A stretch of 64,000 nt of DNA from Rhodoblastus sp. (GTDB lineage: Bacteria; Pseudomonadota; Alphaproteobacteria; Rhizobiales; Beijerinckiaceae): assembly GCA_047971685.1 (NCBI GenBank), contig JBKDZW010000089.1, forward strand, positions 4,488-68,487. The letters are read 5' to 3'. The notes under the pieces were generated by a model that was not told the origin of the DNA, did no database searches, and saw only the letters and a program-made list of their open reading frames with translations. How positions within the stretch are numbered: the stretch's first letter is position 1; each line of letters opens with the position of its first letter. Both the position numbers and the translations under genes were made by a program. Positions 44,674 to 63,273 of the stretch are shown here, in pieces.

Positions 44674-45909
44674 CTATCTGATGACCGATCCGGCTATGGC
44701 GGCCAGCCGGCCGCTATAGGCGGCCTCGCTGAAATGCGCGTCATAGGCGGCGCGCGAGTCGCTTTTTTCACGCTCGGCCGGCGCCGGCGCGGGCCTTGCC
44801 GCCGCCTTGCGCAAGGCCGCCGCAAACCCCTCGGCCTCATCGGCGACGACGACATTGGAAAGCGCTGCGGGATCGAGATTCATGCCGCGGAAAGCGTGTG
44901 TCGTGGCGATCAGCGGCAGGCCGCTGGCCATGGCCTCCACGCTCTTGATCGACAGGCCGGTGCCGCTGGTCGTCGGCAGCAACGCCAGCCGCGCGCCGGC
45001 GTAGATGTCGCCGATATGGTCGACGCGGCCGGCGAACCAGTCCCTGTATTTCTCATACAGCGCGGCGTCCGCCGATTTCACGCCATCGGCCACGGATCCG
45101 TAGATGCGCACGAAAACGCCCGGCGCGCGCGGCGCGACCTCGCGCAGGAACCACAGCGCGCTTTCGACATTGGCGCGGTTCCAGCTCGACACCAGCACGA
45201 TCTCGCCGCCGCCCGGCCCCGTGGGCGCAGGCGGCACGGCAGGATAGATCAATTCGTGTCGCTTTTCGGGAAGCAGCTTGCGGAAGACCTCGTCCTCCTC
45301 GGCATTGAGATGCAGGAGCGCATCGGCCTTGCGCATGGCGTCGAGTTCGCGGGCAAGCATCTGCTCGTAGCTTGCCAGCGGGCGCAGCCAGGGCAGACCC
45401 TCGTTCATCAGGACGAACTGGCGCGCCTGCACATCGTGCGTGTCCATCAAGACCGGCGCGCGCGAACCGGATGCGCCGTTGCGCGCCAGCCGCAACGCCA
45501 CGGGCATGCAGAAGAAATGGTTGCAATGAACGATGTCGAATTTATTGCCCAACAGATCGGTTGGCAGCTTTGCGCGCGAAATCATGCCGGTGCGGATGAC
45601 GGCCTGATCGCCGTGGATATAAGGCCAGAGCACGTCATGCAGGAATTTCGGCGCAAACACCGACGCCAGCGGCGCACCGACGCAATGGCGCTCCTGCGCA
45701 TCGAGTTCGGGCGTGGCTTTGGCAAATTTCTTCCAGATCCAGCCGCGATCCGGCACGAAACCCGGCTGATCGGAACAGGCGACGGCGACGACGCGCGCGC
45801 CAAGCTGCGTCCAGGCCTCGATCTGGCCGAGCACCACCTGATAGGTGCCGCAGGAATGCCAGGCCGGATGAACGATGGCGACGCTGCGCCCCGCAAACGG
45901 CGCTCTCAC
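44674..45909 (-). CDS. GT-B-fold glycosyltransferase, paralog B of a tandem pair
   Basis: A GTG start at 45909 overlaps the upstream gene's stop (GTGA). The protein begins VRAPFAGRSVAIVHPAWHSCGTYQV…. The C-terminal …TSGTGLSIKSVEAMASGLPLIAT… is a GT1/GT4-like E-x7-E-type region. It is collinear with paralog A over its whole length. The 841-aa ORF in the track is a read-through artefact. Confidence 0.8.
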   Translation of the reverse strand: MRAPFAGRSVAIVHPAWHSCGTYQVVLGQIEAWTQLGARVVAVACSDQPGFVPDRGWIWKKFAKATPELDAQERHCVGAPLASVFAPKFLHDVLWPYIHGDQAVIRTGMISRAKLPTDLLGNKFDIVHCNHFFCMPVALRLARNGASGSRAPVLMDTHDVQARQFVLMNEGLPWLRPLASYEQMLARELDAMRKADALLHLNAEEDEVFRKLLPEKRHELIYPAVPPAPTGPGGGEIVLVSSWNRANVESALWFLREVAPRAPGVFVRIYGSVADGVKSADAALYEKYRDWFAGRVDHIGDIYAGARLALLPTTSGTGLSIKSVEAMASGLPLIATTHAFRGMNLDPAALSNVVVADEAEGFAAALRKAAARPAPAPAEREKSDSRAAYDAHFSEAAYSGRLAAIAGSVIR

Positions 45910-47177
45910 AGGCGCACCAGCGGCAGAACGATGTCGCGGATTTTTCGCGCATAGGCGTCGTTGGAGAAATTCTCCTCGTAGAATTTCCGCGTGTCGCTGT
46001 TTTCGCGTGCTTTGCCCGATGCGGCGGGGTTGTTTTGCGGGCCGGCAAGCGCTGCTGCTTCGAGCGCGGCCGCAAACTCCGCCGCGCTTTCGCAGACCGA
46101 GACATTGGCGAGGCTGGCGGGGTCGACATTCATGCCGCGAAAGGCCTGCGGCGTGGCGATCAGCGGCGCGCCCGAAGACAGCGCCTCGACCGCCTTGATC
46201 GAAAGCCCGTGCCCTTCCGTGGTCGGCAGCAGGACAAGGCCGGCATTGGCGTAGACGGCGCCAATGTTGTCGACGCGGCCGAGAAAGGCATGGCGCCATT
46301 TCTCGTAAAGCGCGGGATTGCGCGCTTTCAGGGCGCCGTCGACATTGCCGGCGATCTCGACTTTCGCGCTGCGCGCGCACGGCGCGACATGTTCGAGAAA
46401 CCATTCGACGCTGAGCGTATTGGGATAATTTCCGCTCGCCACGATGGCGATATTGGCCCCGCCCGGCCCGGTCGGCGCTTCCTCGACTGCGGGGTAGACG
46501 AGTTCGTTGCGCATATCCGGCAGGAGTTGCGCGAATGTCGCCCATTCCTGCGCATTGAGGTGGACCAGCATGTCGGCCTTGCGCAAAAACTCCAGTTCGC
46601 GCGCCAGCAATTGATCGTAGGTCGCGCGCGGCGGCACGACGAAATGACCCTCGTTGCGCAGGTCGTATTGCAGGGCCTGCACGTCCTGCGTCTCGATCAC
46701 GAGCGGCGCCGTGGCCGAGAGATTGCGCGCGGCGGGAATGCAGAAAAAATGATTGCAATGGATGAGATCGATGGGGCGCAGCGCCAGTTCGTCCGGCAGG
46801 CGGGCAAATTGCGTCATCGCCGCCGTGGCGCGGGCGTGATCGCCGTGGATCAGCGGCCAGTAGAGCTGCGTCCAGAAGGCGGGTCTGGCGAAAACCGATC
46901 CCGGCATATTGGCGAAATAGCGCTCGTCGGCCGGCATGTCCCGGGTATTTTCGACATAATCGCGCCAGCGCGGGCTTTCCAGACTCGACTGGCCGGGCGG
47001 CCATTCGCGCACGGCCAGCGAGACGACATGGGCGCCGAGCCGCTTGTAGACAGCGGCCTGACTGACGTTGACCTGATAGGAGCCGCAGGAATGCCAGGCC
47101 GCATGCACGATCGCGACCGTCTTGCCTGCGAGTGGAAGCTCCTGATCTTCTTCCGTTTTTGGAATAGGCAGCGTCAA
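45906..47177 (-). CDS. GT-B-fold glycosyltransferase, paralog A of a tandem pair
   Basis: TTG start. Motifs …KTVAIVHAAWHSCGSYQV…IHCNHFFC…TEGHGLSIKAVEALSSGAPLIAT…. Confidence 0.8.
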   Translation of the reverse strand: MTLPIPKTEEDQELPLAGKTVAIVHAAWHSCGSYQVNVSQAAVYKRLGAHVVSLAVREWPPGQSSLESPRWRDYVENTRDMPADERYFANMPGSVFARPAFWTQLYWPLIHGDHARATAAMTQFARLPDELALRPIDLIHCNHFFCIPAARNLSATAPLVIETQDVQALQYDLRNEGHFVVPPRATYDQLLARELEFLRKADMLVHLNAQEWATFAQLLPDMRNELVYPAVEEAPTGPGGANIAIVASGNYPNTLSVEWFLEHVAPCARSAKVEIAGNVDGALKARNPALYEKWRHAFLGRVDNIGAVYANAGLVLLPTTEGHGLSIKAVEALSSGAPLIATPQAFRGMNVDPASLANVSVCESAAEFAAALEAAALAGPQNNPAASGKARENSDTRKFYEENFSNDAYARKIRDIVLPLVRL

Positions 47178-47275
47178 ATGGTCGTTCCTGCCGGGGCATC
47201 CCGCCTATTGTCCGGGCAGCTATTGTCTTGGCGGCCCCGGATATGGGACAAGGCGCGCGCGGACCCGGGAAGCCA

Positions 47276-48160
47276 ATGGGATCGGCGGGTCTTCATAAGG
47301 ATTATTTCGTGTCGAATCCAGAGCAAACGGCCAACGCCCCCAAACGCGGCATGGCCATTGTCGCAAACGACAGGATCGCGGAATGGCTCCTGCCCTTTCT
47401 GGAGAGCTGGAAGCGCGCCAATGCGCATATTCCGCTCTATCTCATCCCCTATGACGACAATCTGACCGTCACCCGCCGCGCCGCAAAGACCTATGGCGTG
47501 ACCATGGTGGAAGAGGTCGACAAGCGCATCGACCGGCTGGCGGCCGATCTCTATCCGCTTTTTCCCGGCCATCGCCGCCGCCTGCGCAAGCTGCAATCGC
47601 TGGCGCTGCCGCTCGACGAGGTGATCTATATCGACGTCGATATCGTGCTGTTCCGCGATTTCGCGCCGATGTTCGGCCTTCTGAAGAAGGACGAGACGGA
47701 ATTCATCGTGGCCTCGCCGTCCTTTGAATATGTCTACAACAAGAAGAAGGACGATTATCCAGACCTCAAGGACGCGCTGTTGTTCAACGACGGCTATTTC
47801 GTCACGTCCAGCAAGTTTCTCAATCTCGACATGTTCGTCGAGACCATGGCGCGCGATGCGAAACTGTTCCACAAGGTGCGCAAGCGCGGCATGCTGTTTG
47901 CCCAGCCCGTGGTGAATTTCACCTGCCACCGCAACGCCGTGAACATCCGCCTGATGTCCGACCTCATCGAAAACGCCTCGCACGAGACCTTCTACAAGGC
48001 GCAAGGCGTCACGTTCAAAGATGGCGCGCCGCTGGATTTCCAGGGCAAGGAAATCTACTTCTGTCACTGGGCGGGCCTGCAAAGCACACCCGGCAAACTC
48101 GCCTTCGACGACGCCTGGCGGGAGTTTTCGGATGCAGCCTGGGCGAAGGTCGGGCGGTAG
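47276..48160 (+). CDS. Hypothetical protein, possibly a GT-A/GT8-like nucleotide-sugar transferase
   Basis: ORF 47228..48160. I prefer the ATG at 47276, which is preceded by GGGAAG. DxD-like motif VIYIDVDIVLF, then …LFNDGYFV…. The family assignment is weak. Confidence 0.5.
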   Translation: MGSAGLHKDYFVSNPEQTANAPKRGMAIVANDRIAEWLLPFLESWKRANAHIPLYLIPYDDNLTVTRRAAKTYGVTMVEEVDKRIDRLAADLYPLFPGHRRRLRKLQSLALPLDEVIYIDVDIVLFRDFAPMFGLLKKDETEFIVASPSFEYVYNKKKDDYPDLKDALLFNDGYFVTSSKFLNLDMFVETMARDAKLFHKVRKRGMLFAQPVVNFTCHRNAVNIRLMSDLIENASHETFYKAQGVTFKDGAPLDFQGKEIYFCHWAGLQSTPGKLAFDDAWREFSDAAWAKVGR

Positions 48161-48172
48161 CAAACGGCGGAC

Positions 48173-49324
48173 ATGAACCAGACGCCGAAAATCCTTTCGA
48201 TCTATCTCGGCAAGCGCGTGCTGCTGGCAACGCTCGTCGTGCAGGTCGCGCTGACCATTCCGGTCGTGCTGTCGGCTCTGTTCCATCAATTGCCGCCGGC
48301 GGCGCTGCGTGGCGGCCTACTCGGCCCCGCGCTCGTCGGCACCTTGCCGACCGTCACCTATATCGCGCTGCCGATTTCGGTCGGCGTCGCCGCAGCGCTT
48401 GAATTTTCGCGCATGTCGTCCGAAGGCATGGTGGCGGTGCTCTATTCGCTGCGCCTGTCGGCCTGGTCGATTGCGCGTCCCGCCATCGTCTGCGCGCTCG
48501 GGGCGACCGCCGTCGGCTATCTGTGCTCTTGCTGGCTGGCGCCGCGCTATGTCGGCTCCATGCACGACGTGCTGAACGTCATCCGCCACTCGCTCAACCA
48601 TCGCATGCTCGAGGCCGGCCAGTTCTATTCCTTCGACGAGGGCCGGCGCATCGTCTTTTTCGAGCGCTGGGAGACCCCCGACATAGCCGCCAAGGTGTTC
48701 ATCCGGCAGCGCTCGCCGGAAAAGAAGGTCGAGGAGACGATCACGGCCGATCGCGCGGAATTCCGCCGCAACGATTTCAATGTCGTGATGATCCTGACCC
48801 ACGGGCAGATCCAGAGCCGCCCCGACGACGGGCGGCGCGTACGCGTGTCCGATTTCGACGAATACGCGATTTCGCTGCCCATGCAGGGCGCCAAGGCGCT
48901 GCCCTCGCGCTCCTGGAAGGGCGTGTTCGAGCTGAGCATGCCGGATTTCTTCGCCTATATGAAATACGCCATGGTCGACCGCCGCAATTTTGCGGAATGG
49001 GCGTCGGAGGCCGTCAAAAGGCTGGTGATTCCGGCGCTGGCGCTCGCCCATACGCTGCTGGGCGTCGGGCTGGTGCTCAATGTCGCCAGCGCAACCGGGC
49101 GGCGCTCGGCCGCCGGCGGGGCAGCGGTCGCCGCGCTGCCGGTCGTCCATATCGCCATTCTGGTGGCCGCCGAAACGCTGATCCGCGCCAATCCGGCGCT
49201 GGCGATCCTCGTCATCGGCCTGGCGCTTGCCGAAATCGCTTGCGGCATATGGCTCATCCAGCGCCAGCAGGTCGGCGATGCGCGCCGGGCGCCGCAAATT
49301 GCGCCGGTGCTTGCGGGGGCGTGA
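48173..49324 (+). CDS. LptF/LptG (YjgP/YjgQ) family permease, orphan copy
   Basis: N-terminal pattern …ILSIYLGKRVLLATLVVQVAL…. Also …EGMVAVLYSLRLSAWSIARPAIVCAL…. A periplasmic-sized middle region is followed by three C-terminal TM segments. It begins 12 nt after the preceding gene. Confidence 0.72.
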   Translation: MNQTPKILSIYLGKRVLLATLVVQVALTIPVVLSALFHQLPPAALRGGLLGPALVGTLPTVTYIALPISVGVAAALEFSRMSSEGMVAVLYSLRLSAWSIARPAIVCALGATAVGYLCSCWLAPRYVGSMHDVLNVIRHSLNHRMLEAGQFYSFDEGRRIVFFERWETPDIAAKVFIRQRSPEKKVEETITADRAEFRRNDFNVVMILTHGQIQSRPDDGRRVRVSDFDEYAISLPMQGAKALPSRSWKGVFELSMPDFFAYMKYAMVDRRNFAEWASEAVKRLVIPALALAHTLLGVGLVLNVASATGRRSAAGGAAVAALPVVHIAILVAAETLIRANPALAILVIGLALAEIACGIWLIQRQQVGDARRAPQIAPVLAGA

Positions 49325-49399
49325 ACCTGACCCCGGACCTTCAGGCTTTGCGGCCCGTTCGCGCGGCCTGTTCCGCCCAGGCCAGCGGCTTTTGCGGGA

Positions 49400-50200
49400 T
49401 CAGGCCGCCTGCCCGCCACCGACGACGCCAGCGGCCTCGTCTTCCTCGTCCTTGCGGACTGCGGCCTTGTAGGCGGGGATGATGTCGTCGGGATGGCCCA
49501 CTTCGCGCACCACGCCGGCGTCGATCCAGATCACGCGGTCGCAAAGCGTGCGCAGATAGTCGAGCCCGTGCGAAACGACCAGAATCGTGCCGCGCTTGGA
49601 AAATTCGGCGATGAAATTCTCGCATTTCTGCGCGAAAGCCTCGTCGCCGACCGAAAGCGCCTCGTCGACGATCAGAATGTCGGCGTCGACATGGGCGCAG
49701 ATGGCGAAGGCAAGCCGCGCGATCATGCCGCTCGAATAGAGCTTCATCGGCTGATCGAAAAACATGCCGATCTCGGCGAAATCGGCGATCTGATCGAGCT
49801 TGGCGACGATCTCGCGACGCGAGAGCCCCAGGACCGCGCCGCCGATGATCGCATTTTCGCGGCCGGACAATGTGGCGTCGAAGCCCGAGCCAAGCGCCAG
49901 GATAGGCGCAATGCGGCCGCGGATTTCGACCGTGCCGGTGGTCGGGCGCGTGATGCCGCACAGGATCTGGAGAAGCGTCGTCTTGCCCGCGCCGTTGCGG
50001 CCGATGATGCCGACGCATTCGCCCTTCCTGATATCGAAGGTGATATCGCGCAGCACCCAATGCTTTCTGTAATAGGTCTTGGCCCAGCCAAACAGCGCCT
50101 GCATCAACTGGTCGTTGCGGCGCAGGTAGAGCTGGAAGGCCTTGCCTGCGTTGCGGCAGGAAATCGCCAGTTCGGAAGACATCGGGCGATCAGAGGACAT
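49400..50200 (-). CDS. ABC transporter ATP-binding protein (Wzt/KpsT/TagH-like polysaccharide/lipid export type)
   Basis: Walker A GRNGAGKTT. Signature YSSGMIARL. Walker B ILIVDEAL. The N-terminus …LFGWAKTYYRKHWVLRDITFDI… is typical of ABC-2 exporters. An alternative start lies at 50182. Confidence 0.9.
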   Translation of the reverse strand: MSSDRPMSSELAISCRNAGKAFQLYLRRNDQLMQALFGWAKTYYRKHWVLRDITFDIRKGECVGIIGRNGAGKTTLLQILCGITRPTTGTVEIRGRIAPILALGSGFDATLSGRENAIIGGAVLGLSRREIVAKLDQIADFAEIGMFFDQPMKLYSSGMIARLAFAICAHVDADILIVDEALSVGDEAFAQKCENFIAEFSKRGTILVVSHGLDYLRTLCDRVIWIDAGVVREVGHPDDIIPAYKAAVRKDEEDEAAGVVGGGQAA

Positions 50201-51023
50201 CGACGATCACCGATTTGTATTCCTTGAAGAAACCGTAGCCGAACAGAAAGACAGCGTAAGAGGCCACGAAGCACGCCAGATACATCCACGGATCGGGAAA
50301 GCGCTCGTAGATCACAAGATCGCGCAGCATGGCGATGTAATCGCCTACCAGGTTGAGCTTGATCCAGGGTTGCAGATTGGCCGGCAATTGTTCGATCTGG
50401 AAGAAAACCGGCGTGGCGAACATCATCAGCGGCACGATCGAAACCATGAGATGGGCGACGTCGCGGGTAAAAGCGCCCAGCGCCATCAGGAACCAGACGG
50501 TGCCGAGCATCAAAAGCATGAACGGCAGGATGATGAGGGGTACGAAAATCACCTTCCACGAAATGAAGTGGACGGTGGCCAGCCGCACGGCGAGCAGCGT
50601 GGCGAAGCTGATCGCGCCATAGACGAGCGCGCGGATGGTGGAGGTCCAGGCGATCGTCTCGGACGGAAAGATCGACTTCTTGATGAAATGGACGTGCTCG
50701 TGCAGCAGCGTGGGCGAGCGCGCCGCCAGTTCCGCGAACACGTTGAACAGGATGAGGCCGCAAAAACTTGCCGCTGCATAATCGTAGATCGGCACGCCGG
50801 CTGCGACCGTCGGCGTCGCAATGGTGAAGATCGCAGTATAGACCAGCAGCATGGCGAGCGGCGCGAAGATCGCCCAGATCCAGCCCAGGAAGGAATCGCG
50901 GAACCGCGAGGTCAGTTCGCGCCGCACGACCGCGCGGATCAGCTCCCGGTGGTGCCAGGCCCGCTCGAACGGCTCAGTCAGGAATATCGGCAAGTCCTGG
51001 ATTTTCAACGCTGTGATTTCCAA
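50190..51023 (-). CDS. ABC-2-type transporter permease (Wzm/KpsM-like)
   Basis: TTG start. …HRELIRAVVRRELTSRFRDSFLGWIWAIFAPL… matches the ABC-2 N-terminal signature. Six predicted TM segments. Confidence 0.87.
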   Translation of the reverse strand: MEITALKIQDLPIFLTEPFERAWHHRELIRAVVRRELTSRFRDSFLGWIWAIFAPLAMLLVYTAIFTIATPTVAAGVPIYDYAAASFCGLILFNVFAELAARSPTLLHEHVHFIKKSIFPSETIAWTSTIRALVYGAISFATLLAVRLATVHFISWKVIFVPLIILPFMLLMLGTVWFLMALGAFTRDVAHLMVSIVPLMMFATPVFFQIEQLPANLQPWIKLNLVGDYIAMLRDLVIYERFPDPWMYLACFVASYAVFLFGYGFFKEYKSVIVDVL

Positions 51024-51504: not shown

Positions 51505-51774
51505 GTGGACTCTGTTGCGCAAGGCGATGAATTCTACGCCCAGATCATTGAAGTGATTTCGAAAGAGGGCATGGTCGAGGCCGACAAGGTCAAGCCCGAA
51601 GCCACAATCGAAAGTCTCGATCTCAAGTCTATCGACATCGTCATGATTCTGACGGCGATCGAGGAAAAATTCGACGTCTACATTCCCATGGACGGGGCCT
51701 TTCAGGAGGCCAAGACCGTTCAGGATCTGATCGACGCGCTGGCGACCCATATCAACAAAGAGAAGAAAAACTGA
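51505..51774 (+). CDS. Acyl carrier protein (dedicated, non-housekeeping type)
   Basis: PP-binding pattern …IESLDLKSIDIVMILTAIEEKFDVYIP…, with Ser in the LKS position of the usual D-S-L motif. GTG start chosen at 51505 because there is no in-frame ATG. The stop is directly followed by the KAS ATG (TGAATG). Confidence 0.72.
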   Translation: MDSVAQGDEFYAQIIEVISKEGMVEADKVKPEATIESLDLKSIDIVMILTAIEEKFDVYIPMDGAFQEAKTVQDLIDALATHINKEKKN

Positions 51775-52992
51775 ATGACGCAGGGCCGTCGGGTCGTCAT
51801 CACCGGCATGGGCGCCGTCTCCGGCGCCGGCGTCGGATGGAAGCCGCTGTGGAACGCCGCCCGCGAGGGCGCGAGCGTGGTCCGCGCGCTTGAATTTGCG
51901 CGCGATTATCCCGGCCGCATTCGCATCGGCGCGCAGGTTCCCGATTTCGATGCGGCCAAGCTGATCGAGCGCTCCACGCTGATGTATTGCGATCCCTTCA
52001 CGCAATACGCGATTGTGGCCGCCGATCAGGCGGTGGCCGAAGCCGGTTTCGACAACAAAAATGTCGGCGGCGCCGATTGCGCGGTCATTCTGGGGTCGGG
52101 CATTGGCGGCATCCGCACCGTCGACGACGGTCTCTTCGCGCTCTACGCAAAGGGCGTGAAGCCGGAACCGCTGAGCATTCCCAAGCTGATCGCCAGCGCC
52201 GGCCCCTCGATGCTGTCCATCCGCTACGACGCGCACGGGCCGGTGTTTGCGGTGGCCAGCGCGTGTTCCTCCGCAAATCAGGCGATCGGCATGGGCATGC
52301 ACATGGTGCGCTCCGGCATGGCCGAGCGCGCCATTGTCGGCGGCGCCGAGGCGAGCCTTTCGGTCGGCACCCAGATGACCTGGGAAATGCTGCGTGTGCT
52401 GACGCCGGACAAATGCCGCCCCTTCTCCAAGGGCCGCAACGGCATGAGCATCGGCGACGGCGCGGCCATGTTCGTTCTGGAAACCGAGGAGGCGGCGATG
52501 GCGCGCGGCGCGCCGATCCTGTGCCGCCTCGTGGGCTACGGCACTTCGGCGGACGCGCGCGACCCGATCCGCCCCGACGCGGACGGCGCCTCGCTCGCCA
52601 TGCGCCGCGCCATCGCGGACGCCGATATTCCCGCCGACACGATCCAGTACGTCAATGCGCACGGCACGGCGACCGCGCTCAACGATCCCACGGAAGCCGA
52701 GGCCATGGGCCGCATTTTCGGCGACAGGCTGGCCGAGGTCGCGGTCTCCTCGACCAAGCCGGTGCACGGCCATGCGCTGGGAGCTGCCGGCGCGCTGGAG
52801 CTGGTCTGCACCATCATGGCGATGCGCGAAAACATTGCGCCGCCGACGATCAATTTCCTCGAACCCGACCCCAAATGCCCTGTGGATTGCGTGCCCAACC
52901 AGGCGCGCGCCATGACGATCCGCACGGCCATGACCAATTCCTTCGCCTTTGGCGGCGTGAACGCCTCGCTCGTCCTCCAGGCGGCGGACTGA
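51775..52992 (+). CDS. Beta-ketoacyl-ACP synthase (KAS I/II, FabF-like)
   Basis: …RRVVITGMGAVSG…. Active-site Cys context AVASACSSANQAIG. His motifs NAHGTAT and …KPVHGHALGAAG…. 405 aa. Confidence 0.92.
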   Translation: MTQGRRVVITGMGAVSGAGVGWKPLWNAAREGASVVRALEFARDYPGRIRIGAQVPDFDAAKLIERSTLMYCDPFTQYAIVAADQAVAEAGFDNKNVGGADCAVILGSGIGGIRTVDDGLFALYAKGVKPEPLSIPKLIASAGPSMLSIRYDAHGPVFAVASACSSANQAIGMGMHMVRSGMAERAIVGGAEASLSVGTQMTWEMLRVLTPDKCRPFSKGRNGMSIGDGAAMFVLETEEAAMARGAPILCRLVGYGTSADARDPIRPDADGASLAMRRAIADADIPADTIQYVNAHGTATALNDPTEAEAMGRIFGDRLAEVAVSSTKPVHGHALGAAGALELVCTIMAMRENIAPPTINFLEPDPKCPVDCVPNQARAMTIRTAMTNSFAFGGVNASLVLQAAD

Positions 52993-54617: not shown

Positions 54618-55786
54618 ACGTCGCTCTCGACATCCTGCGTTGGGCCACGCTCGTTTTCTGCGCGATCTCGCTCGCCGGCCTCGTGCTGACCGTAGCGCTC
54701 GGACTGATCTCGCCGCTGATCCATGCGCGCCGCGCGCGCAGGTCCGATCTGCCGCCGATCAGCTTTATCCTGCCTATCAAGGACTGGGCGACAAGCTTCG
54801 GTCCTTCGCAATCCTCGGTCTTTGCGCTCGACTATCCCGAATATGACGTGACCGCGACGGCGGCGGAGGCCGAATCGCAGGCCGTAACGGCGATGCGCGA
54901 CATTATTGCCGCCCATCCCGACCGCCCGGCCAAACTGGTGCAATCGACGGCCAGCTTTGCCGTCAGCCCCAAGGTCAACAATATTTACAGCGCGATCGAG
55001 GAGGCCAGATACGATCTCATCGCCACCAAGGATTGCAACATCGTGTTGCCGCCGCGCACCGCGCGCATGGCGGTCGCCGCCATGACCGAGAACGTGGGGC
55101 TTGTGACCGCCATAACCGAGGCGCGCGGCGCGACCTCGCTGGCGGCGCGGATCGAGGCCTCGATCATGAACCAGTCGCATGCGCGCTATCTTCACGCAGC
55201 GGCCGCGCTGGGGCTCGGTTTCGGGCTCGGCAAGCTGATGATCTTCAAGCGCTCGGATCTGCACCGGGCCGGCGGTTTTGAAGCCATCGCCCATACCGTG
55301 GGCGAGGATTCGGCGACCGCCCATGCGCTTGCAGGCATCGGCCTGCGCACGGTCATCATCGGCGCGCCGATCTATCAGGTGCTGGGCGCGCGCAAATTCG
55401 GCGATATGCACAACCGTCAGATGCGCTGGGCCGTCATAAGGCGCCAGAACGAACTGGCCGGTTTTCTGGCCGAACCTTTCGGCCTGTCGGTCTTTGTGGC
55501 GCTGGCGGCGGCTTTTGCGGCGCCGCTTCTTGGCTGGAGCGCGCCGGGCGCCTTTCTGGCGACGCTCGTCTTCTGGTTTGCCTGCGAAACCGCGCTTGCC
55601 TTGGCGCGGGGCTGGGATGTATCGGTGAGCGCGCCCTTCGTCATGGTCGCCCGCGATGCGATGATGGCTTCGGTCTGGCTGCGCGCCTGGTTCACCAGGC
55701 GGGTCGTCTGGGCGGCCGAAGTTTACGAGGCGCAGCAGGAGCGTGGCTCGATGCCTGCCCCCGCCCAGAAAAGGAATGATGCGTGA
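54614..55786 (+). CDS. GT21-family glycosyltransferase (ceramide glucosyltransferase / UGCG-like)
   Basis: A TTG start overlaps the SDR stop (TTGA). Regions align by eye to human UGCG: LPPISFILPIK…FALDYPEYDV, SPKVNNIYSAIEEARYDLIATKDCNIVLPP, MTENVGLVTAI, GEDSATAHAL, and Q-x-RW (NRQMRWAVIRR). The 661-aa ORF in the track includes an out-of-frame leader. Confidence 0.8.
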   Translation: MNVALDILRWATLVFCAISLAGLVLTVALGLISPLIHARRARRSDLPPISFILPIKDWATSFGPSQSSVFALDYPEYDVTATAAEAESQAVTAMRDIIAAHPDRPAKLVQSTASFAVSPKVNNIYSAIEEARYDLIATKDCNIVLPPRTARMAVAAMTENVGLVTAITEARGATSLAARIEASIMNQSHARYLHAAAALGLGFGLGKLMIFKRSDLHRAGGFEAIAHTVGEDSATAHALAGIGLRTVIIGAPIYQVLGARKFGDMHNRQMRWAVIRRQNELAGFLAEPFGLSVFVALAAAFAAPLLGWSAPGAFLATLVFWFACETALALARGWDVSVSAPFVMVARDAMMASVWLRAWFTRRVVWAAEVYEAQQERGSMPAPAQKRNDA

Positions 55787-57060
55787 CGGCGCAAGGATTG
55801 CTCGTCGGATTGATCGACATTGCGCTCACGCTATGCGTTCTCGGCATGGCGGCGATTGGCGCGAGCCTGCTCGTTCTGGTGGTTCGCTTTCTCTACGACC
55901 AGGCGCGCGGCGCAGGCGACGGTTCACGCGACGTCGCGCCGCTGGCGGAAGCCGACCTGCCGCATGTCGTCCTGCAAATTCCCGTTTTCAACGAGCCGCG
56001 CGTGGTGATCGGCGCCCTGCGCGCCGCCGCCGCGCTCGATTGGCCGCGCGAAAAACTGCACCTTCAATTGCTCGACGATTCCACCGACGAGACCACCGAG
56101 CGCGCCGCCGAACTGATCGCGGAATTGCGCGCCGAGGGCCACGACGTGCGCCATGTGCGCCGCGAGGACCGCACGGGCTTCAAGGCCGGCGCGTGCGCCG
56201 CCGGTCTGGCGCTCGACGATTCGCCGTTCGTGGCGATGCTCGATGTCGATTTCCGCCCGCCGGCCGACTGGCTGCGCAAGGCCATTCCCGTCATCGTCGG
56301 CGATCCCAAGGCCGGCTTCGTGCAGGCGCGCTGCGAATTCGCCAATTACCGCAAAAACTGGCTGACGCGCGTACAGGGCCTGATCCTCGACGGCCATTTC
56401 ATGATCGAGCAGCGCACCCGCGCCAATCTCGGCTGGCTGTTCCAGTTCAACGGCACGGGCGGCATATGGCGGCGCGCAGCCATCGATTCGGTCGGCGGCT
56501 GGCAGGATTATTCGCTGACCGAAGACCTCGACCTCACCATCCGCACCGCGCTTGCCGGCTGGCACGGCCGGTTCATTTCCGAGCCCGCCAGTCCCGGCCA
56601 GATGCCCGAGGGCATGCGCGACTGGCGCCGCCAGCAGCGCCGCTGGTCCAACGGCTTCATTCAGGTCGCCCAGCGGACGCTCGGACCGATCTGGACCGCG
56701 CCATGGAGCCTGGCCGAACGCCTGTCCTCGATCATGCTCGTGCTGCATCAGGTGTTCTTTCCGTTGTGCGCGGGCGCAATCATCCTCATCATTCTCGGCA
56801 TTCTGGCGCGAGGAATCTCGATTGCAGCCTATCTGCCGCTGTTCGGCCTGATCTTCCTGATGGTCTGCGCGGTCGTGATCGGCATGACCCTGCCGCCCTC
56901 TCTCGCGCTCAAGCGTGGGTCGTTCTGGCGCTATCTCGCCACCATGGCCATGCTGCCGCCGCTGTTCATCTATCTGGCCGTCGCCAATGCGCCGAAAATC
57001 ATCCAGACCGCGCGCGGGCGGCAGGAGCATTTCAAGCGCACGCCCAAGAAAGAGCATTAA
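55783..57060 (+). CDS. Family 2 glycosyltransferase, processive type (CslA / MGlcDG-synthase-like), membrane-embedded
   Basis: A GTG start overlaps the GT21 stop (GTGA). Motifs: …VVLQIPVFNE…, LLDDSTD, MLDVDF, TEDLDL and QQRRW (QxxRW). N-terminal and multiple C-terminal TM segments. Confidence 0.87.
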   Translation: MTAQGLLVGLIDIALTLCVLGMAAIGASLLVLVVRFLYDQARGAGDGSRDVAPLAEADLPHVVLQIPVFNEPRVVIGALRAAAALDWPREKLHLQLLDDSTDETTERAAELIAELRAEGHDVRHVRREDRTGFKAGACAAGLALDDSPFVAMLDVDFRPPADWLRKAIPVIVGDPKAGFVQARCEFANYRKNWLTRVQGLILDGHFMIEQRTRANLGWLFQFNGTGGIWRRAAIDSVGGWQDYSLTEDLDLTIRTALAGWHGRFISEPASPGQMPEGMRDWRRQQRRWSNGFIQVAQRTLGPIWTAPWSLAERLSSIMLVLHQVFFPLCAGAIILIILGILARGISIAAYLPLFGLIFLMVCAVVIGMTLPPSLALKRGSFWRYLATMAMLPPLFIYLAVANAPKIIQTARGRQEHFKRTPKKEH

Positions 57061-57455: not shown

Positions 57456-58907
57456 ATGGACGACAAACTTGCATTCGCCTCGGCGGCCACGCTCGCAAAA
57501 CTGGTGCGCGAAAAAAAGGTCGGGGCGGTCGAACTTCTGGAATTCTTTCTTGCGCGCGTCGAACGCCACAATCCCACTCTCAACGCCATCATCGTCCAGC
57601 GCGCGGACGCCGCCAGAAAAGAGGCTGCGGCCTGCGACGCCATGACCGCGAAAGGCCAGTCGATGGGGGCGCTGCACGGCGTGCCCATGACGGTCAAGGA
57701 ATCCTTCGATGTCGCGGGCACGCCGTCCACCTGGGGATTGACGGCGTTCCGCGACAATATCGCGGCCAGGGACGCGCTTTCCGTCGAGCGGTTGAAGGGC
57801 GCTGGCGCGGTCGTTTTCGGCAAGACCAATGTGCCGGCCTGGCTTGCCGACTGGCAATCGTTCAACCCGATCTACGGCACGACCAACAATCCCTGGAATG
57901 TCGGGCGCACGCCGGGCGGTTCTTCAGGCGGCAGCGCGGCGGCGCTGGCGGCGGGACTCACGGGGCTGGAGATAGGCAGCGACATCGGCGCCTCCATCCG
58001 CGATCCCGCCCATTATTGCGGGGTTTACGGCCACAAGCCGACCTTCGACATCTGCCCGCGCGACGGCCATCTCCTGCCCGGCGCCTATGCCCACGGCGAT
58101 ATTTCCGTGATCGGCCCGCTGGCGCGCTCGGCCTACGATCTGGAGACCGCGCTCGACATTATCGCAGGGCCCAATGCGCTCGAGGCCACGGGGCTGCGCC
58201 TGGAATTGCCGCGCTCGAAAAAGACGAAACTGTCGGAGTTTCGCGTCGCCGTCATGCCTTCGGCCGACACCGCGCCGGTCGATGGCGCCGTGCGTGAAAA
58301 AATCGAGGAGCTTGCCGGTTTTCTGGAAGGCCAGGGCGCCCATGTCGATCGCGCCGCGCGCCCCGTCGATCCAGCCGCCGCGCACGAGACCTACATCATG
58401 CTCCTGCGCTCGGCGACCAGCGGCGCGCTCGATGACGCGGTTTACGAAAAATTGCTGGCTGCGCGAAAAGAGGTTGCAGGGCGCAACGATTATTTCGCCT
58501 GGCATGCGCGCGCAAACACGATGGGCCATCGCGAATGGCTGCGCTGGAACAATGCCCGCGCGAAAATGCGGCTCGACTGGCAGGCGTTTTTTACCCGCTT
58601 CGATCTCCTGCTCTGCCCGACCGCCACGACAACCGCGTTTCCGCACATGCAGACCGGCGAGCGCTGGGAACGCATGATTTCGGTCGACGGCAAGGACCAG
58701 CCGACGACGACGCAGCTTTTCTGGGCGGGCTATTCCGGCATGGTCGATCTGCCATCGACCATCGCGCCGCTCGGGCTGGCGAAAGACGGCCTGCCGGTCG
58801 GCGTGCAGATCGTGGCGCCGGCCTATCGGGATCACAGCGCCATCCGCTTCGCGCAATTGCTGGAAGACCGGTATCGCGCGTTCGAGCCGCCGCCGGGGTT
58901 TGCATAA
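57456..58907 (+). CDS. Amidase-signature (AS) family amidase
   Basis: AS motif GGSSGGSAAALAAG, catalytic Lys context VPMTVKESF, and …GSDIGASIRDPA…. RBS GGGAGGA. Confidence 0.9.
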   Translation: MDDKLAFASAATLAKLVREKKVGAVELLEFFLARVERHNPTLNAIIVQRADAARKEAAACDAMTAKGQSMGALHGVPMTVKESFDVAGTPSTWGLTAFRDNIAARDALSVERLKGAGAVVFGKTNVPAWLADWQSFNPIYGTTNNPWNVGRTPGGSSGGSAAALAAGLTGLEIGSDIGASIRDPAHYCGVYGHKPTFDICPRDGHLLPGAYAHGDISVIGPLARSAYDLETALDIIAGPNALEATGLRLELPRSKKTKLSEFRVAVMPSADTAPVDGAVREKIEELAGFLEGQGAHVDRAARPVDPAAAHETYIMLLRSATSGALDDAVYEKLLAARKEVAGRNDYFAWHARANTMGHREWLRWNNARAKMRLDWQAFFTRFDLLLCPTATTTAFPHMQTGERWERMISVDGKDQPTTTQLFWAGYSGMVDLPSTIAPLGLAKDGLPVGVQIVAPAYRDHSAIRFAQLLEDRYRAFEPPPGFA

Positions 58908-58939: not shown

Positions 58940-59626
58940 TCAGAGCGGCTTGTCGCCGGGCTTGTCGTCCTTGGCATAGCCGGTGCCGAACACATCGTCC
59001 CAATAAGGGCAGCTCACGCCATAGCCGCGGTCGGGATCGCGGAAATGATGCAGGAGGTGCGCACGGCGCAGGATCTGCTCGACCCTGGTGTGCGGCGGGC
59101 GGTGATGAATGTGGTAGTGGATCTCGTCGTAGAGCACGTAGCCGACGAGGAAGCCGGCCGTGATCGAATAGGACAGAGGCTCCGGAAACAGCAGGGTGAT
59201 CACGACATAAGCGAGCGCCATCAGCGGCACGCTCATCAGCAGGGGCATGACGAGGCGCAGGGGATCGCTCGGATGCACGTGATGCACGCCGTGCAGCAGG
59301 AAGTGGATGCGCTCGCCGATCCTGCCGGGAAATTCCGTGTGAAAGACCCAGCGATGGAAGACATATTCGCAGAGCGTCCAGGCGATATAGCCGAAGATCA
59401 GGCAGGCGATGGTGATGAACGCCGGTTGCCCCCTGGCGCCGAGCCAGCCGAGCCAGGCGGCGAAGGGAAGATAGAACAGCGGCGCCCACCAGGGTACGCG
59501 CGAAAGCAGGTCCAGCACACGATTGTCGAAAATGCGCGGCGAGGCCGCCAGAAGCTCGGCCTTGCTCATGCCCTGCGTCGACATATGCGCGTATGGGTCG
59601 CGCGCGGTTTGCGTCGTGTCGCTCAT
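58940..59626 (-). CDS. Fatty acid 2-hydroxylase (FA2H/Scs7-like, fatty-acid hydroxylase superfamily) lacking a cytochrome b5 domain
   Basis: His boxes and flanks align by eye with human FA2H: WTLCEYVFHRWVFH, HFLLHGVHHVHPSDPLRLVMP, GYVLYDEIHYHIHH and LRRAHLLHHF…GYGVS…WDDVFGT. Confidence 0.85.
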   Translation of the reverse strand: MSDTTQTARDPYAHMSTQGMSKAELLAASPRIFDNRVLDLLSRVPWWAPLFYLPFAAWLGWLGARGQPAFITIACLIFGYIAWTLCEYVFHRWVFHTEFPGRIGERIHFLLHGVHHVHPSDPLRLVMPLLMSVPLMALAYVVITLLFPEPLSYSITAGFLVGYVLYDEIHYHIHHRPPHTRVEQILRRAHLLHHFRDPDRGYGVSCPYWDDVFGTGYAKDDKPGDKPL

Positions 59627-59636: not shown

Positions 59637-60647
59637 TCACGCCGCCGCAGTCGGCGCGCTTGTCGCCGGCGCCGGCGTACTTGCCGCCGGCGCCGCGCCG
59701 AGATTCTCGGTGCGCGACATCAGCGAATATCGCGGGTTGAAGATGAAATCGAAGAACAGTTTCACCCAGGATTTGTGGGCGTGCAGGTTATTGTAGAATT
59801 CCGGCGCCGTGGCCTTCAACCTGGGCAGCAGGGCCCAGGGGATTTCCTGAAAATCGTGATGTTCGTTGTGATAGCCGATGTTGAGCGCGAAGAAGTTCAG
59901 GGGGCCGTAGTAATCGAACGTGCCCTGCCCCGGCCAGGCCGCGTAATGCTCCTGAATCCAGCGCGCGCCCAGCGGATGCAGGCCGACCGAGAACCAGAAG
60001 GAAGCAAACAGGTAAAACAGCGCATTGCCGCCGAGGAAATACCAGACCGCGATGTCGAAGACCGCGATGACGGCGAAATTGACGTAGGTCCACAGGCCCC
60101 AGATCGGCACCGTGCCCTTGAGGCGGTAGATGCGGGTGAGCTGCATCACGGGGAAGAAGAACAGCCACAGGGCTTTGCGCCACCAGACATTGCCGACGAG
60201 TTTTGCCTCCCAGCCGGAGGGCACGTCGGCGTCGTAATCGTAGCTGGACAGATGCGAATGGTGCTTCACATGGTAGCAGCGAAAGCCCATGGCGGTCGGA
60301 AAGGCGTTGGGCAGATCGGCCAGAATCGCATTCCATTTGTTGAGCGTGGGGCTCTGGAACACGGCGTTGTGGATGGAATCGTGAATGATCACGAACATGG
60401 CGTGATTGGCGAATGCGCCGATTCCATAGGCGAGCAGCAGGGTCGCCCACCAATAGGACATGCCGAGATAGCCCATCCAGGCGGCGATCGCGACTTGCAG
60501 GACGAATACGCCGGCGGTGATCCAGAAGGTTCTGATGTCGCGCACCATGAGCTGGGCCACTTCCGGATGGGCGGCCAGGATCGCCTTGCGGCGATCGACA
60601 TGGCTTCGGTCGACGCCGAGAGCGGTAACGGGAACGCTCATGTTCAT
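59637..60647 (-). CDS. Sphingolipid Delta4-desaturase (DEGS1/Des1-like; Lipid_DES N-terminal region plus FA desaturase domain)
   Basis: Collinear by eye with human DEGS1: HVDRRKAILAAHPEVAQLM, NHAMFVIIHDSIHNAVF, FRCYHVKHHSHL, GLHPLGARWIQEHY, YYGPLNFFALNIGYHNEHHDFQEIP and SWVKLFFDFIFNPRYSLMSR. It carries an extra Ala/Pro/Thr-rich C-terminal tail. Confidence 0.9.
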   Translation of the reverse strand: MNMSVPVTALGVDRSHVDRRKAILAAHPEVAQLMVRDIRTFWITAGVFVLQVAIAAWMGYLGMSYWWATLLLAYGIGAFANHAMFVIIHDSIHNAVFQSPTLNKWNAILADLPNAFPTAMGFRCYHVKHHSHLSSYDYDADVPSGWEAKLVGNVWWRKALWLFFFPVMQLTRIYRLKGTVPIWGLWTYVNFAVIAVFDIAVWYFLGGNALFYLFASFWFSVGLHPLGARWIQEHYAAWPGQGTFDYYGPLNFFALNIGYHNEHHDFQEIPWALLPRLKATAPEFYNNLHAHKSWVKLFFDFIFNPRYSLMSRTENLGAAPAASTPAPATSAPTAAA

Positions 60648-61863: not shown

Positions 61864-61935
61864 GGCGCCGCCCATAGCACGGACGCAGGCCGGAACCAAC
61901 GCCGGCCTGCGCGAATTGGAGCGGTTCCAGACGGG

Positions 61936-63273
61936 TTAGAAAGCCGCCGCCGGCTGATCGCCCGGCAGGACGAGACCGCGCGGCGGCTCGACGACCGGCC
62001 GGTCGACGATCAATTGCACGACCTGGCGGATATCGTCCTCGGTGTGGCTGGCCGAGATGAAGAAGCGCAGGCGCGGCTTGTCCTTGGGCACGCCTACCTG
62101 CACGACGGGCGGCACATAGACGCCGTGCGCCAGCAGGTGCTGGGAGACGGCCATGGTCTCCCACACCGAATTGAACAGGATCGGCACGACGGCGCGCCCG
62201 ATCGCGGGGCCGGTGTCGAGGCCGGCGGCCTGCGCCGTGTTGCGCAGGAATTCGGCGTTATGCGCGAGTTTGGCGATGCGCCAGGATTCCGACTGCATCA
62301 GGTCCAGCGCCTTGGAGGCGGCAGCCGTGATGACCGGCGACAGGCCGACCGAATAGACGAAGCCCGGCAGGGTGAATTTCATCCAGTCGATGAGCAATTG
62401 CTTGCCGGCGACGAAACCGCCGCAGGAGGCGAAACTCTTCGACAAGGTGCCGACGATGAGATCGACGCGGGCGGGGTCGACGCCGCAATATTCGCACAGG
62501 CCCGCGCCGCGCTTGCCGAGAACGCCGATGGAATGGGCCTCGTCGACCAGAAGCCACACGCCGTGCTTTTCCTTGATGTCGCAGATGCGCGCCAGATCGA
62601 CCGTGTCGCCGTCCATCGAATAGAGGCTTTCGACGACGATCAGGCAATTGCGGTATTTCTCGCGGTGCTCGGTGAGCAATTGGTCGAGATGGTCGAAATC
62701 GTTGTGGCGGAATACGATCTGGGCCGCATCCGCATTGCGCGCGCCGGTCGCCACGCTGTTGTGCGACAATTCGTCGAGGAAGATCGCGTCGCGCTTGGCC
62801 ATCAGATGGGTGATGACGGTCAGATTGGTCAGATAGCCCGAGACCAGCGACAGCGTCGCTTCGGTTCCCAGAAACTTCGCGAGATTTTCCTCGAATTTCT
62901 GGTGGGTCGAACGCTCGCCGCCGACAAGGCGGGACGCGAGCGCGCCCACGCCCAGCGTGTCGATGGCCCGGTGGGCGGCCGCCTTCACTTCCGGATGCTC
63001 GGCAAGCCCCAGATAATCGTAATTGGCGAAAGAGACGTAATGCCCGCCGTTCCGGCCCTCGATCTCCGCCTTGAGCGTGTCGGTCGGCGCGAAGAACGGA
63101 TTGCCGTGCTCGTCGAGGATGGCTTTGCCGGCGAGCCTGTAGCGCCGGAACGCATAATCGGAGAGGCTTTGGTGTTTTTTCGCCACGCAGAAAGGTTCCG
63201 GTTGCGGGACGGTCCGCCCCTGATTGCGTCGCGCAGCGCGCTGGGCCGCCTGCCGACGCTGCCCCTTTACCAT
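61936..63273 (-). CDS. PLP-dependent alpha-oxoamine synthase, serine palmitoyltransferase (Spt)-like
   Basis: AOS family motifs …FANYDYLGL…, …SHNS…, …VDEAHSIG… and PLP-lysine GTLSKSF. BioF/KBL/ALAS alternatives are considered. The operon context with DEGS-, FA2H- and bCerS-like genes favours Spt. Confidence 0.8.
   Translation of the reverse strand: MVKGQRRQAAQRAARRNQGRTVPQPEPFCVAKKHQSLSDYAFRRYRLAGKAILDEHGNPFFAPTDTLKAEIEGRNGGHYVSFANYDYLGLAEHPEVKAAAHRAIDTLGVGALASRLVGGERSTHQKFEENLAKFLGTEATLSLVSGYLTNLTVITHLMAKRDAIFLDELSHNSVATGARNADAAQIVFRHNDFDHLDQLLTEHREKYRNCLIVVESLYSMDGDTVDLARICDIKEKHGVWLLVDEAHSIGVLGKRGAGLCEYCGVDPARVDLIVGTLSKSFASCGGFVAGKQLLIDWMKFTLPGFVYSVGLSPVITAAASKALDLMQSESWRIAKLAHNAEFLRNTAQAAGLDTGPAIGRAVVPILFNSVWETMAVSQHLLAHGVYVPPVVQVGVPKDKPRLRFFISASHTEDDIRQVVQLIVDRPVVEPPRGLVLPGDQPAAAF

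Follow-up and report, generated by a model that had tools for sequence, protein, structure and literature searches.

A mosaic gene island in Rhodoblastus as a candidate locus for a glycosylated ceramide-type envelope lipid

Current accounts treat bacterial ceramide synthesis, through the serine palmitoyltransferase Spt, the GNAT-type ceramide synthase bCerS and CerR, as a case of convergence with the eukaryotic pathway. An 18.6-kb gene island (positions 44674–63273) in a metagenome-assembled genome (MAG) of Rhodoblastus (Beijerinckiaceae, Hyphomicrobiales) raises the question of whether ceramide-forming enzymes of bacterial type may act together with tailoring enzymes of eukaryotic type. The island lies in a stretch of 64,000 nucleotides, called the window here, whose left 44 kb carry unrelated housekeeping genes. 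A preliminary description of the window had proposed that the island, in a Rhizobiales-like alphaproteobacterium, makes, decorates and exports a glycosylceramide. The host does belong to the Hyphomicrobiales, all the genes listed in that description were found where it had placed them, and nearly every one of its domain calls was confirmed by Pfam and NCBIfam scans. Judged by its sequence, the locus is a mosaic, in which a bacterial bCerS-family acyltransferase and a non-canonical alpha-oxoamine synthase (AOS) are encoded together with homologs of three eukaryotic ceramide-tailoring enzymes. We think it probable that the island would serve the synthesis, tailoring, glycosylation and export of a glycosylated ceramide-type envelope lipid.

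Candidate ceramide-forming and tailoring enzymes

The second gene of the core operon encodes a 399-aa protein (probable start ATG 61863) that matches the Rhodoblastus sp. NCBI protein ACK5JM_08090 at 100% identity and gave zero Pfam or NCBIfam matches above cutoff. The bCerS-like proteins of canonical sphingolipid loci likewise have no NCBIfam match, so that this lack is no evidence against membership of their family. The family of the 399-aa protein (members of ∼380 aa; 4800 representatives at E ≤ 0.001) aligned end to end, and an AlphaFold2 (AF2) model based on the family alignment reached a pLDDT of 89.5. The top Foldseek matches of the model, at E ∼1e-11, were tandem GNATs: MshD, the clavulanate tandem GNAT and FemX. 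Over its full length the protein is 36–43% identical to bCerS-family proteins of three canonical loci (L053, L084 and L070), which carry acyl carrier protein (ACP)-Spt, LptF2 and LptG2 genes. In the Pseudoroseomonas locus, L053, the bCerS-like gene is preceded by paralogs of LptF and LptG, and at a distance of 8 kb from it stand an ACP gene and a gene for an AOS that passes the NCBIfam serine palmitoyltransferase model (640 bits, cutoff 500). In Phenylobacterium and in a Sphingomonadales MAG, it lies between an LptF/G paralog and a cytidylyltransferase gene, the Phenylobacterium order LptF, bCerS, cytidylyltransferase being that of Caulobacter CCNA_01214, 01212 and 01210; the published Caulobacter order is lptF2, lptG2, bcerS, cpgD. 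Distant members of the family also adjoin AOS genes. By sequence and predicted fold, the 399-aa protein is a bCerS-family member, placed through relatives in canonical loci rather than through the Caulobacter sequence, and the earlier identification of a bCerS-like GNAT is upheld. Several proteins of the family are double-length or N-terminally extended (630–784 aa; P0122, P0147, P0237), and another gene call, P0343, fuses SDR and GT21 domains in 535 aa; such proteins may be genuine fusions, or the calls may have run across 4-nt overlaps in error.

The AOS, encoded by the first gene of the operon (probable start GTG 63186; the longest open reading frame (ORF) begins at 63273), contains intact SHNS, DEAHS and TLSKS, which we take to be the pyridoxal phosphate (PLP) motifs of the AOS family. 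It had been called Spt-like, a claim that did not hold. Its scores on the three NCBIfam Spt models were all below cutoff (Spt-beta 294 bits, cutoff 500; Spt-CFB 286, cutoff 640; Spt-alpha 206, cutoff 670), the L053 Spt serving as the control that passed. The scores for bioF (350, cutoff 426), Kbl (298, cutoff 460) and ALAS (265, cutoff 339) also fell short, with bioF the highest-ranking NCBIfam model. The ranking of PDB matches did not discriminate, a Sphingobacterium SPT scoring 209.6 bits and E. coli Kbl 206.7. In tblastn searches of plasmids, the nearest annotated relatives were an Acidisoma plasmid AOS (52% identity), the C-terminal AOS domain of a Planktothrix type I polyketide synthase (PKS; 43%) and a Bacillus mycoides plasmid AOS (38%).

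A neighbour-joining tree was built from 43 AOS sequences (382 columns, 200 bootstraps), including 18 ACP-linked Spt from canonical sphingolipid loci, BioF of E. coli and Azospirillum, Kbl of E. coli and Ralstonia, and Roseomonas ALAS; SgaB was left out. The clade of the window AOS was joined by the Acidisoma enzyme (100% bootstrap), by the AOS of a sulfotransferase-linked locus, L004 (84%), and by the PKS-fused Planktothrix and Bacillus enzymes (99%). The preliminary description had expected the enzyme to group with Spt rather than with BioF or Kbl. It did stand apart from all the BioF, Kbl and ALAS references, but it also lay outside the canonical Spt, which formed a separate clade (100%) beside Kbl. 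Because the method is distance-based and outgroups are few, the deep order of the tree is unreliable; the separation from canonical Spt is robust. The window enzyme is best described as an AOS that is not a canonical Spt and that groups with PKS-linked AOS enzymes. PfSgaB, the non-canonical PKS-associated AOS of Pseudomonas fluorescens MYb115, has SPT activity and uses serine (PMC12134224), and placement outside the Spt clade is thus no argument against a sphingoid product. The L004 locus itself (6722–10193 on ENA contig ctg123356l) has an AOS gene (49% identity) and a bCerS-like gene followed by a sulfotransferase gene, with genes for synthesis of 3′-phosphoadenosine 5′-phosphosulfate (PAPS) before them, and is a candidate sulfated amino-lipid locus.

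Three further genes encode full-length relatives of eukaryotic enzymes by Pfam and sequence matches, in agreement with the DEGS-like, FA2H-like and UGCG-like assignments made previously. The desaturase homolog holds the DEGS-specific domain PF08557 Lipid_DES (30.9 bits, cutoff 23) as well as PF00487 (82.5 bits), and the His boxes HDSIH, HVKHH and HNEHH are present. Comparison with an unverified human DEGS1 sequence gave 35% identity over 306 aa (E 5e-61), which is a lead only, and a PDB search returned no solved structure matching the desaturase. The gene follows that of the bCerS-family protein in nearly every related locus. Residues 32–223 of the 228-aa hydroxylase match yeast Scs7p (PDB 4zr1; E 5.5e-30); no cytochrome b5 domain was matched in it by Pfam, and the alignment begins at residue 91 of the truncated Scs7p construct. 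Orthologs of the hydroxylase gene stand in the operon in loci L002 and L007 and in Methylocystis. Fatty acid hydroxylase (FAH) homologs are also present outside the locus in Methylocapsa, Methylovirgula, Beijerinckia and Methylocella genomes, so that absence from the 20-kb locus is not absence from the genome. A co-variation of FAH and GT21 across clades was considered and dropped, as these homologs elsewhere in the genomes break the pattern.

The family 21 glycosyltransferase (GT21) matches the ceramide glucosyltransferase structures 26qs and 26qf over residues 42–339 (E 6e-30), its RQMRW motif, of the (R/Q)xxRW type, aligning with SRMIRW of the solved enzyme. Assignment as HpnI was rejected, the score on the NCBIfam equivalog (141 bits) being below the cutoff of 310. 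GT21 orthologs were found in the Rhodoblastus clade, Methylocystis and locus L096, and not in Methylocella-type cassettes. Relatives of the three enzymes carry the automated JGI names ‘sphingolipid delta-4 desaturase’, ‘dihydroceramide fatty acyl 2-hydroxylase’ and ‘ceramide glucosyltransferase’; their NCBI names are generic. In locus L097 (11212–21206 of ENA k141_796556), a gene for a GT21 homolog (45% identity) and an FA_hydroxylase gene converge; the neighbours of the GT21 homolog are rhamnose-synthesis and ABC-2 genes on one side and phage terminase and portal genes on the other.

Gene organization, putative chain-building cassette and export genes

ORF listing, translation and Pfam/NCBIfam scans gave 18 genes in the island (Table 1), which fall by strand into six transcription units and not into three as had been claimed. 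The junctions of the plus operon measure, in order, 0, +7, −4, −4, −4 and −4 nt, bearing out the description of them as 0–7 nt gaps or 4-nt overlaps; the gaps in the minus core operon are 72, 16 and 10 nt. Base composition is uniform along the whole window, so that the region does not have the look of a recent import. An Rfam scan of the whole window gave zero matches, and a promoter and terminator scan of 44–64 kb found no more sites than in shuffled controls. Two long ORFs were rejected as high-GC artefacts: one of 841 aa (44674–47199, minus), which merges a real GT-B gene with an out-of-frame stretch, and one of 371 aa (47174–48289, minus), antisense to the GT-A-like gene.

Table 1. Genes, transcription units and modules of the island in the Rhodoblastus window
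Feature	Coordinates	Strand	Domain or other support
Island, 18.6 kb	44674–63273		
Module C (units 1–3)	44674–51023		
Unit 1	47177 to 44674	minus	
GT-B (GT4-type) paralog b	44674–45909	minus	PF13692, PF13579, PF13439; GTG start 45909, 4-nt overlap
GT-B (GT4-type) paralog a	45906–47177	minus	PF13692, 49 bits
Unit 2	47228 to 49324	plus	
Putative GT-A-type glycosyltransferase (‘GT8-like’)	47228–48160	plus	weak
Single divergent LptF/LptG-family permease	48173–49324	plus	PF03739, 116.7 bits
Unit 3	51023 to 49400	minus	
ABC transporter ATPase (Wzt/TagH-like)	49400–50200	minus	PF00005
ABC-2 type permease (Wzm-like)	50190–51023	minus	PF01061, 62 bits
Unit 4 (module B)	51505 to 57060	plus	
Dedicated ACP	51505–51774	plus	PF00550, 31.4 bits
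FabF-like beta-ketoacyl-ACP synthase (KAS)	51775–52992	plus	PF00109, PF02801
Conserved 140-aa protein upstream of MaoC dehydratase	53000–53422	plus	
MaoC/HadB-like (3R)-hydroxyacyl dehydratase subunit	53419–53823	plus	PF01575, 51.5 bits
Classical short-chain dehydrogenase/reductase (SDR)	53820–54617	plus	PF00106, 147.7 bits
GT21 related to ceramide glucosyltransferase	54614–55786	plus	PF13506, 143 bits; TTG start
Membrane GT2, BcsA/PgaC/NodC type	55783–57060	plus	PF13632, PF13641, PF00535; QQRRW motif
Unit 5	57456 to 58907	plus	
Amidase-signature amidase between the lipid operons	57456–58907	plus	PF01425, 322 bits
Unit 6 (module A)	63273 to 58940	minus	
FA2H/Scs7-type fatty-acyl 2-hydroxylase homolog	58940–59626	minus	PF04116, 64.5 bits
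DEGS-type sphingolipid delta4-desaturase (or C4-hydroxylase) homolog	59637–60647	minus	PF08557, PF00487
bCerS-family N-acyltransferase, tandem GNAT, 399 aa	60664–61863	minus	
AOS (PLP-dependent)	61936–63273	minus	PF00155, 182 bits

The first five genes of the plus operon resemble mycobacterial type II fatty acid synthesis (FAS-II; AcpM, KasA, MabA, HadAB): an ACP of their own and a FabF-like KAS are joined by an SDR and by a MaoC-type dehydratase, whose gene overlaps a small partner gene upstream of it by 4 nt. They differ from it in that no enoyl reductase was found by Pfam in the ACP, KAS, reductase and dehydratase set, in that they share one operon with two glycosyltransferase genes and in that the HadA-like nature of the partner is putative. 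The ACP scored below all NCBIfam cutoffs for housekeeping ACPs, and its orthologs (62–89% identity) head the cassette in relatives. The KAS differs from housekeeping FabF (TIGR03150 389 bits, cutoff 494). The preliminary description had named two hotdog dehydratase subunits. The second has the MaoC domain, with weak matches to the NCBIfam HadB and HadA/HadB models, while the first, the 140-aa protein, has no significant family match: Pfam and NCBIfam returned nothing, hhalign gave a probability of 1.3% against the family of the second subunit, and the sole match in a PDB profile search was the dehydratase HtdX, which was weak (E 0.024). Its AF2 model, made from the single sequence, had a pLDDT of 47. 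The gene is kept at the same position in all cassettes (28–57% identity), and the protein is possibly a HadA-like partner subunit.

The best PDB matches of the SDR were lipophilic-substrate SDRs and FabG-like enzymes (E ∼1e-22), a generic ranking, and a specific assignment as KDSR or FabG was rejected. In L002 the SDR gene is kept with GT21, GT2 and the export genes, the ACP, KAS and dehydratase genes being gone; in Acidisoma an SDR gene adjoins that for AOS, and an SDR of 48% identity is encoded beside ACP–KAS in L005. As a candidate 3-keto reductase, the enzyme could act on the long-chain base or ceramide, or else serve the elongation module. Locus L005 (1–16700 of JGI Ga0209692_10000240) has genes for a 2521-aa type I PKS and an AOS divergent from bCerS-like, ACP, KAS and SDR genes, after which comes an MMPL transporter gene. 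The membrane GT2 matches the BcsA catalytic domain (E 2e-17). With orthologs of 52–88% identity in all cassette types, it is more widely conserved than the other glycosyltransferase encoded there.

Among the export and decoration genes, that of the ABC-2 permease is co-located in L002, L007, L096 and L099–L103. The ATPase scored 187–215 bits on the NCBIfam TagH and Wzt models, below their cutoffs. The LptF/G-family permease, with orthologs in L002, L096, L101–L103, L148 and L153, missed the equivalog cutoffs for both LptF (116 bits, cutoff 230) and LptG (47 bits, cutoff 240), as is expected of a specialised paralog. LptF2/G2 paralogs encoded in sphingolipid loci are required for sphingolipid export in Caulobacter (bioRxiv 10.64898/2026.04.12.717747). 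The earlier call of an LptF/G-family permease is sound at the family level, and such a paralog fits the reported sphingolipid transporter. The GT-A-like gene always precedes the LptF/G gene; its description as GT8-like rests on Pfam matches below cutoff (PF03407 Nucleotid_trans, 20.2 bits; PF01501 GT8, 17.2 bits), and the L096 ortholog has a faint GT8 match. The two GT-B transferases, rightly described as duplicated, are 48% identical. The amidase was indeed found between the two lipid operons and exceeds the cutoff of NCBIfam NF004816 (612 bits, cutoff 503), but it is conserved at this position solely in close Rhodoblastus-like contigs (L098–L100, 83–84% identity), whose neighbouring genes are 83–91% identical, and is missing from L002, L007 and every other locus compared. 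Its membership of the system is doubtful, and a role as an integral ceramidase is unsupported for a gene confined to very close relatives.

Beyond the island, an Hsp20 gene (63382–63897, plus) is divergent from that for the AOS and keeps its position in L002, L006, L007 and L100, which suggests a stress-responsive control region shared with the AOS operon. The window also encodes, at 16863–19979 (plus), a glycyl-radical enzyme resembling pyruvate formate-lyase, and after it comes an ORF of activase size; this is notable in a bacterium whose family is mostly aerobic or phototrophic. A UDP-glucose 6-dehydrogenase gene (9970–11271, plus), a possible source of UDP-glucuronate, was excluded from the island as it is 33 kb distant and unlinked.

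Conservation and modularity

All island proteins were compared by tblastn with 80 genome loci anchored on bCerS (one genome per species) and with a second set of 80 metagenome loci around GT2, sampled to ±10 kb around the anchor genes. Dozens of related genomes and metagenome contigs share the arrangement, and the predicted co-conservation in relatives was borne out. The AOS–bCerS–desaturase trio is present in ∼45 Beijerinckiaceae and Methylocystis loci, that is, in nearly all of them, its carriers including Rhodoblastus, Methylocella, Methylocapsa, Methylovirgula and Beijerinckia sp. L45. Methylocystis rosea SV97 has a tight four-gene operon of AOS, bCerS, desaturase and hydroxylase genes, flanked by ccmAB and ligA.

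The pieces of the island can nevertheless be found apart. In many loci of the Methylocella and Beijerinckia types, module B without GT21 lies next to module A in convergent orientation, and the full series ACP–KAS–140 aa–MaoC–SDR–GT21–GT2 stands alone in ∼40 loci, assigned to Methylocystis by exact sequence matches. Both modules are present in Methylocystis strain SC2 (CCJ06243 in A, CCJ06202 in B), in M. hirsuta (RNJ49723 and RNJ49756) and in one Methylocystis MAG (MBM3576123 and MBM3576155), and A and B were found on one 741,838-bp contig; the accession numbers imply a spacing in Methylocystis of ∼30–40 genes. Module C accompanies module B in Rhodoblastus-like genomes and in L096, L148 and L153, and in the last three no module A was found within 10 kb. 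The 18.6-kb island is a lineage-specific fusion of separable modules, which exporter genes join only in Rhodoblastus-like genomes, and the idea of one unified system of this size does not extend to Methylocystis and other relatives, where the modules lie apart.

Two related loci have neighbours of other kinds. In L001 (6313–8208; Beijerinckiaceae bacterium, CP024846.1), the AOS gene has immediately upstream of it genes for ornithine-lipid acyltransferases of the OlsB type (PF13444) and OlsA type (PF01553), and a transposase gene lies between those for the desaturase and GT2. In L088 (Acidisoma sp. PAMC 29798 plasmid NZ_CP126995.1, 9885–25149), genes for a bCerS-like protein, SDR, AOS, an FA_hydroxylase-family protein and two GT1 enzymes adjoin Kps-like capsule genes and an ABC exporter; a capsule-type glycan could be anchored here by a ceramide-like product.

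Proposed pathway, alternatives and significance

From the established family identities, homologies, gene order and conservation, we infer which substrates are used, in what order the steps proceed, how the modules are linked and what is produced, as follows. The linkage of the AOS to a bCerS-family acyltransferase points to an N-acylated amino-ketone or amino-alcohol lipid, and because the homologs of the next two gene products have only (dihydro)ceramides as known substrates, a ceramide-type lipid is suggested. The AOS would form a 3-keto long-chain base by condensing a long-chain acyl thioester with an amino acid; the latter is most likely serine, which is favoured since a UGCG-type glycosyltransferase needs a C1 hydroxyl. 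The tandem GNAT would N-acylate this base. Reduction at C3 could fall to the classical SDR of module B, the best candidate as there is no CerR and as it persists with the glycosyltransferases in L002 and as an SDR abuts the AOS in Acidisoma, though it could equally be the ketoreductase of the ACP–KAS–dehydratase elongation set. The DEGS-type di-iron enzyme would desaturate or hydroxylate at C4, and the Scs7/FA2H-type enzyme would 2-hydroxylate the amide-linked chain. The ACP, KAS and MaoC dehydratase, probably with its partner, together with the SDR would build or load a special acyl-ACP that probably feeds the AOS or the N-acyltransferase; supply of the AOS by this set would fit the fusion of AOS relatives to PKS carrier modules. 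GT21 and the BcsA-like GT2 would add sugars to the lipid, and the glycosyltransferases of module C would extend the head group. The Wzm/Wzt-like ABC-2 transporter and the LptF/G paralog may move the product outward, as exporters of the O-antigen type and LptF2/G2 of Caulobacter suggest by analogy.

The pathway so drawn has several known counterparts. The Caulobacter/Sphingomonas-type ceramide locus (spt, acpR, aasR, cerR, bcerS, lptF2/G2) was reportedly also treated by Stankeviciute in 2022. Like that locus (Olea-Ozuna 2021; Uchendu 2026 preprint), the island combines an AOS with a bCerS-family acyltransferase, a dedicated ACP, although in another operon than the AOS, and an extra LptF/G-family permease. 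It differs in that its AOS comes from another clade, below the Spt model cutoffs, in having KAS, dehydratase and SDR genes instead of CerR and an acyl-ACP synthetase, and in having one Lpt permease gene where the other has a pair. For tailoring, it has DEGS, FA2H and GT21 homologs, whereas Caulobacter has a DesA-family hydroxylase (CCNA_00202) and phosphoglycerate head-group enzymes. With the eukaryotic glucosylceramide branch (DEGS1/Des1, FA2H/Scs7, UGCG/GCS) the island shares full-length homologs of all three enzymes, two of them encoded in one operon with the candidate ceramide-forming genes. Unlike in eukaryotes, the candidate ceramide synthase is of the bacterial GNAT type and not Lag1/CerS, the hydroxylase has no cytochrome b5 domain, and the SPT counterpart is a soluble-type homodimeric AOS. 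As in PfSgaAB (PMC12134224), a non-canonical AOS is predicted to take a carrier-bound chain from dedicated condensing enzymes; these are discrete type II proteins in the island and an iterative type I PKS in sga, and the sga cluster, unlike the island, lacks bCerS, desaturase, hydroxylase and glycosyltransferase genes.

Several points weigh against a glycosylated ceramide. Pfam searches found no epimerase-family protein in 44–64 kb that could be CerR (NDUFA9/epimerase-type), the classical SDR being the sole reductase there, and no AMP-binding acyl-ACP synthetase in the island; no reductase was found within 10 kb of the core operons of Methylocystis and Methylocapsa. The position of the AOS outside the Spt clade and below the Spt cutoffs leaves room for an amino acid other than serine. 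Nor does the GT21 family fix the acceptor, since its members include HpnI and enzymes of other Hyphomicrobiales (Pgt of Agrobacterium and Mesorhizobium) that glycosylate diacylglycerol. No module A lies near modules B and C in L096, or near module B in the ∼40 Methylocystis loci, so that physical linkage is not obligatory, and we found no literature on lipid analyses of these organisms. The island might thus hold two unrelated systems side by side, with module A making an unglycosylated ceramide and modules B and C another glycolipid, such as a glycosyl-diacylglycerol or a glycosylated special fatty acid. The solitary heptad from ACP to GT2, GT21 included, in Methylocystis, the heptad with export genes alone in L096, module A alone in Methylocapsa and Methylocystis, and the use of diacylglycerol by GT21 enzymes of related bacteria would all suit such an arrangement. 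We consider it unlikely, however, because convergent A–B adjacency recurs in Rhodoblastus- and Methylocella-type genomes with different versions of the cassette, because the same Methylocystis genomes hold both modules, and because GT21 adjoins an FA_hydroxylase gene in L097 and bCerS-like genes stand beside ACP–KAS–SDR in the distant L005.

The AOS might alternatively use glycine, alanine or another amino acid, in which case the product would be an amino-lipid with a 1-deoxy or otherwise altered base and sugars attached elsewhere, and not a true sphingolipid. This would agree with the separate clade and top bioF score of the enzyme and with the varied contexts of its relatives (sulfotransferase, PKS and capsule genes), but is made distinctly improbable by the homology of the downstream enzymes to ceramide-acting ones, by the C1 hydroxyl that a UGCG-type enzyme should need and only serine should provide, and by the use of serine by the PKS-linked PfSgaB. 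To a secreted secondary metabolite, a polyketide amine like sphingofungin or fumonisin rather than a membrane lipid, we give very little credence. The kinship of the AOS with PKS-fused domains is in its favour, as is an ACP, KAS, reductase and dehydratase set without enoyl reductase; yet the genes are vertically inherited across two families in fixed neighbourhoods by hsp20 and an acetyl-CoA synthetase gene, the outer membrane is indicated by the Lpt-family permease and the ABC exporter of O-antigen type, and the island has no thioesterase, tailoring P450 or regulator genes of the sort usual in such clusters. A glycosylated ceramide-type envelope lipid remains the product that we favour. For the gene functions and for a candidate ceramide-type glycolipid, the preliminary reading holds in large part; the points to correct are the AOS, the missing reductase and the unity of the 18.6-kb block.

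The preliminary description had also held that the combination of DEGS, FA2H and GT21 enzymes is unreported in bacteria, and this stands as far as the literature was covered: no description of the three-enzyme set was found in the bacterial sphingolipid literature searched, in which subscription journals are mostly uncovered. Publications on the Caulobacter, Bacteroides, roseobacter, Black Sea and PKS systems described none with these enzymes, all the literature found on Lipid_DES or sphingolipid delta4-desaturases concerns eukaryotes, and none was found that names both Methylocystis and ceramide. One 2023 paper mentions an SPT in Methylocystaceae and nothing more.

A bolder proposal, which we put forward tentatively and think rather unlikely, is that Beijerinckiaceae and Methylocystaceae, cultured methanotrophs included, make genuine delta4-unsaturated, 2-hydroxy-acyl glucosylceramides resembling fungal and plant ones, through the addition of DEGS, FA2H and glucosylceramide synthase orthologs to a bacterial bCerS and a non-canonical, serine-condensing AOS, and that these tailoring genes share direct ancestry with those of eukaryotes through an ancient transfer in either direction. 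If true, this would qualify the view of the bacterial and eukaryotic ceramide pathways as wholly convergent. Provided that they exist, the predicted lipids would be the first sphingolipids of bacteria to be made with DEGS, FA2H and GCS-type enzymes, and the origin of these eukaryotic enzymes would become directly testable. They would also place sphingolipids in environmentally important methane oxidisers with intracytoplasmic membranes, the cultured strains that carry the genes including Methylocystis sp. SC2, M. hirsuta, M. rosea, Methylocapsa species and Beijerinckia sp. L45.

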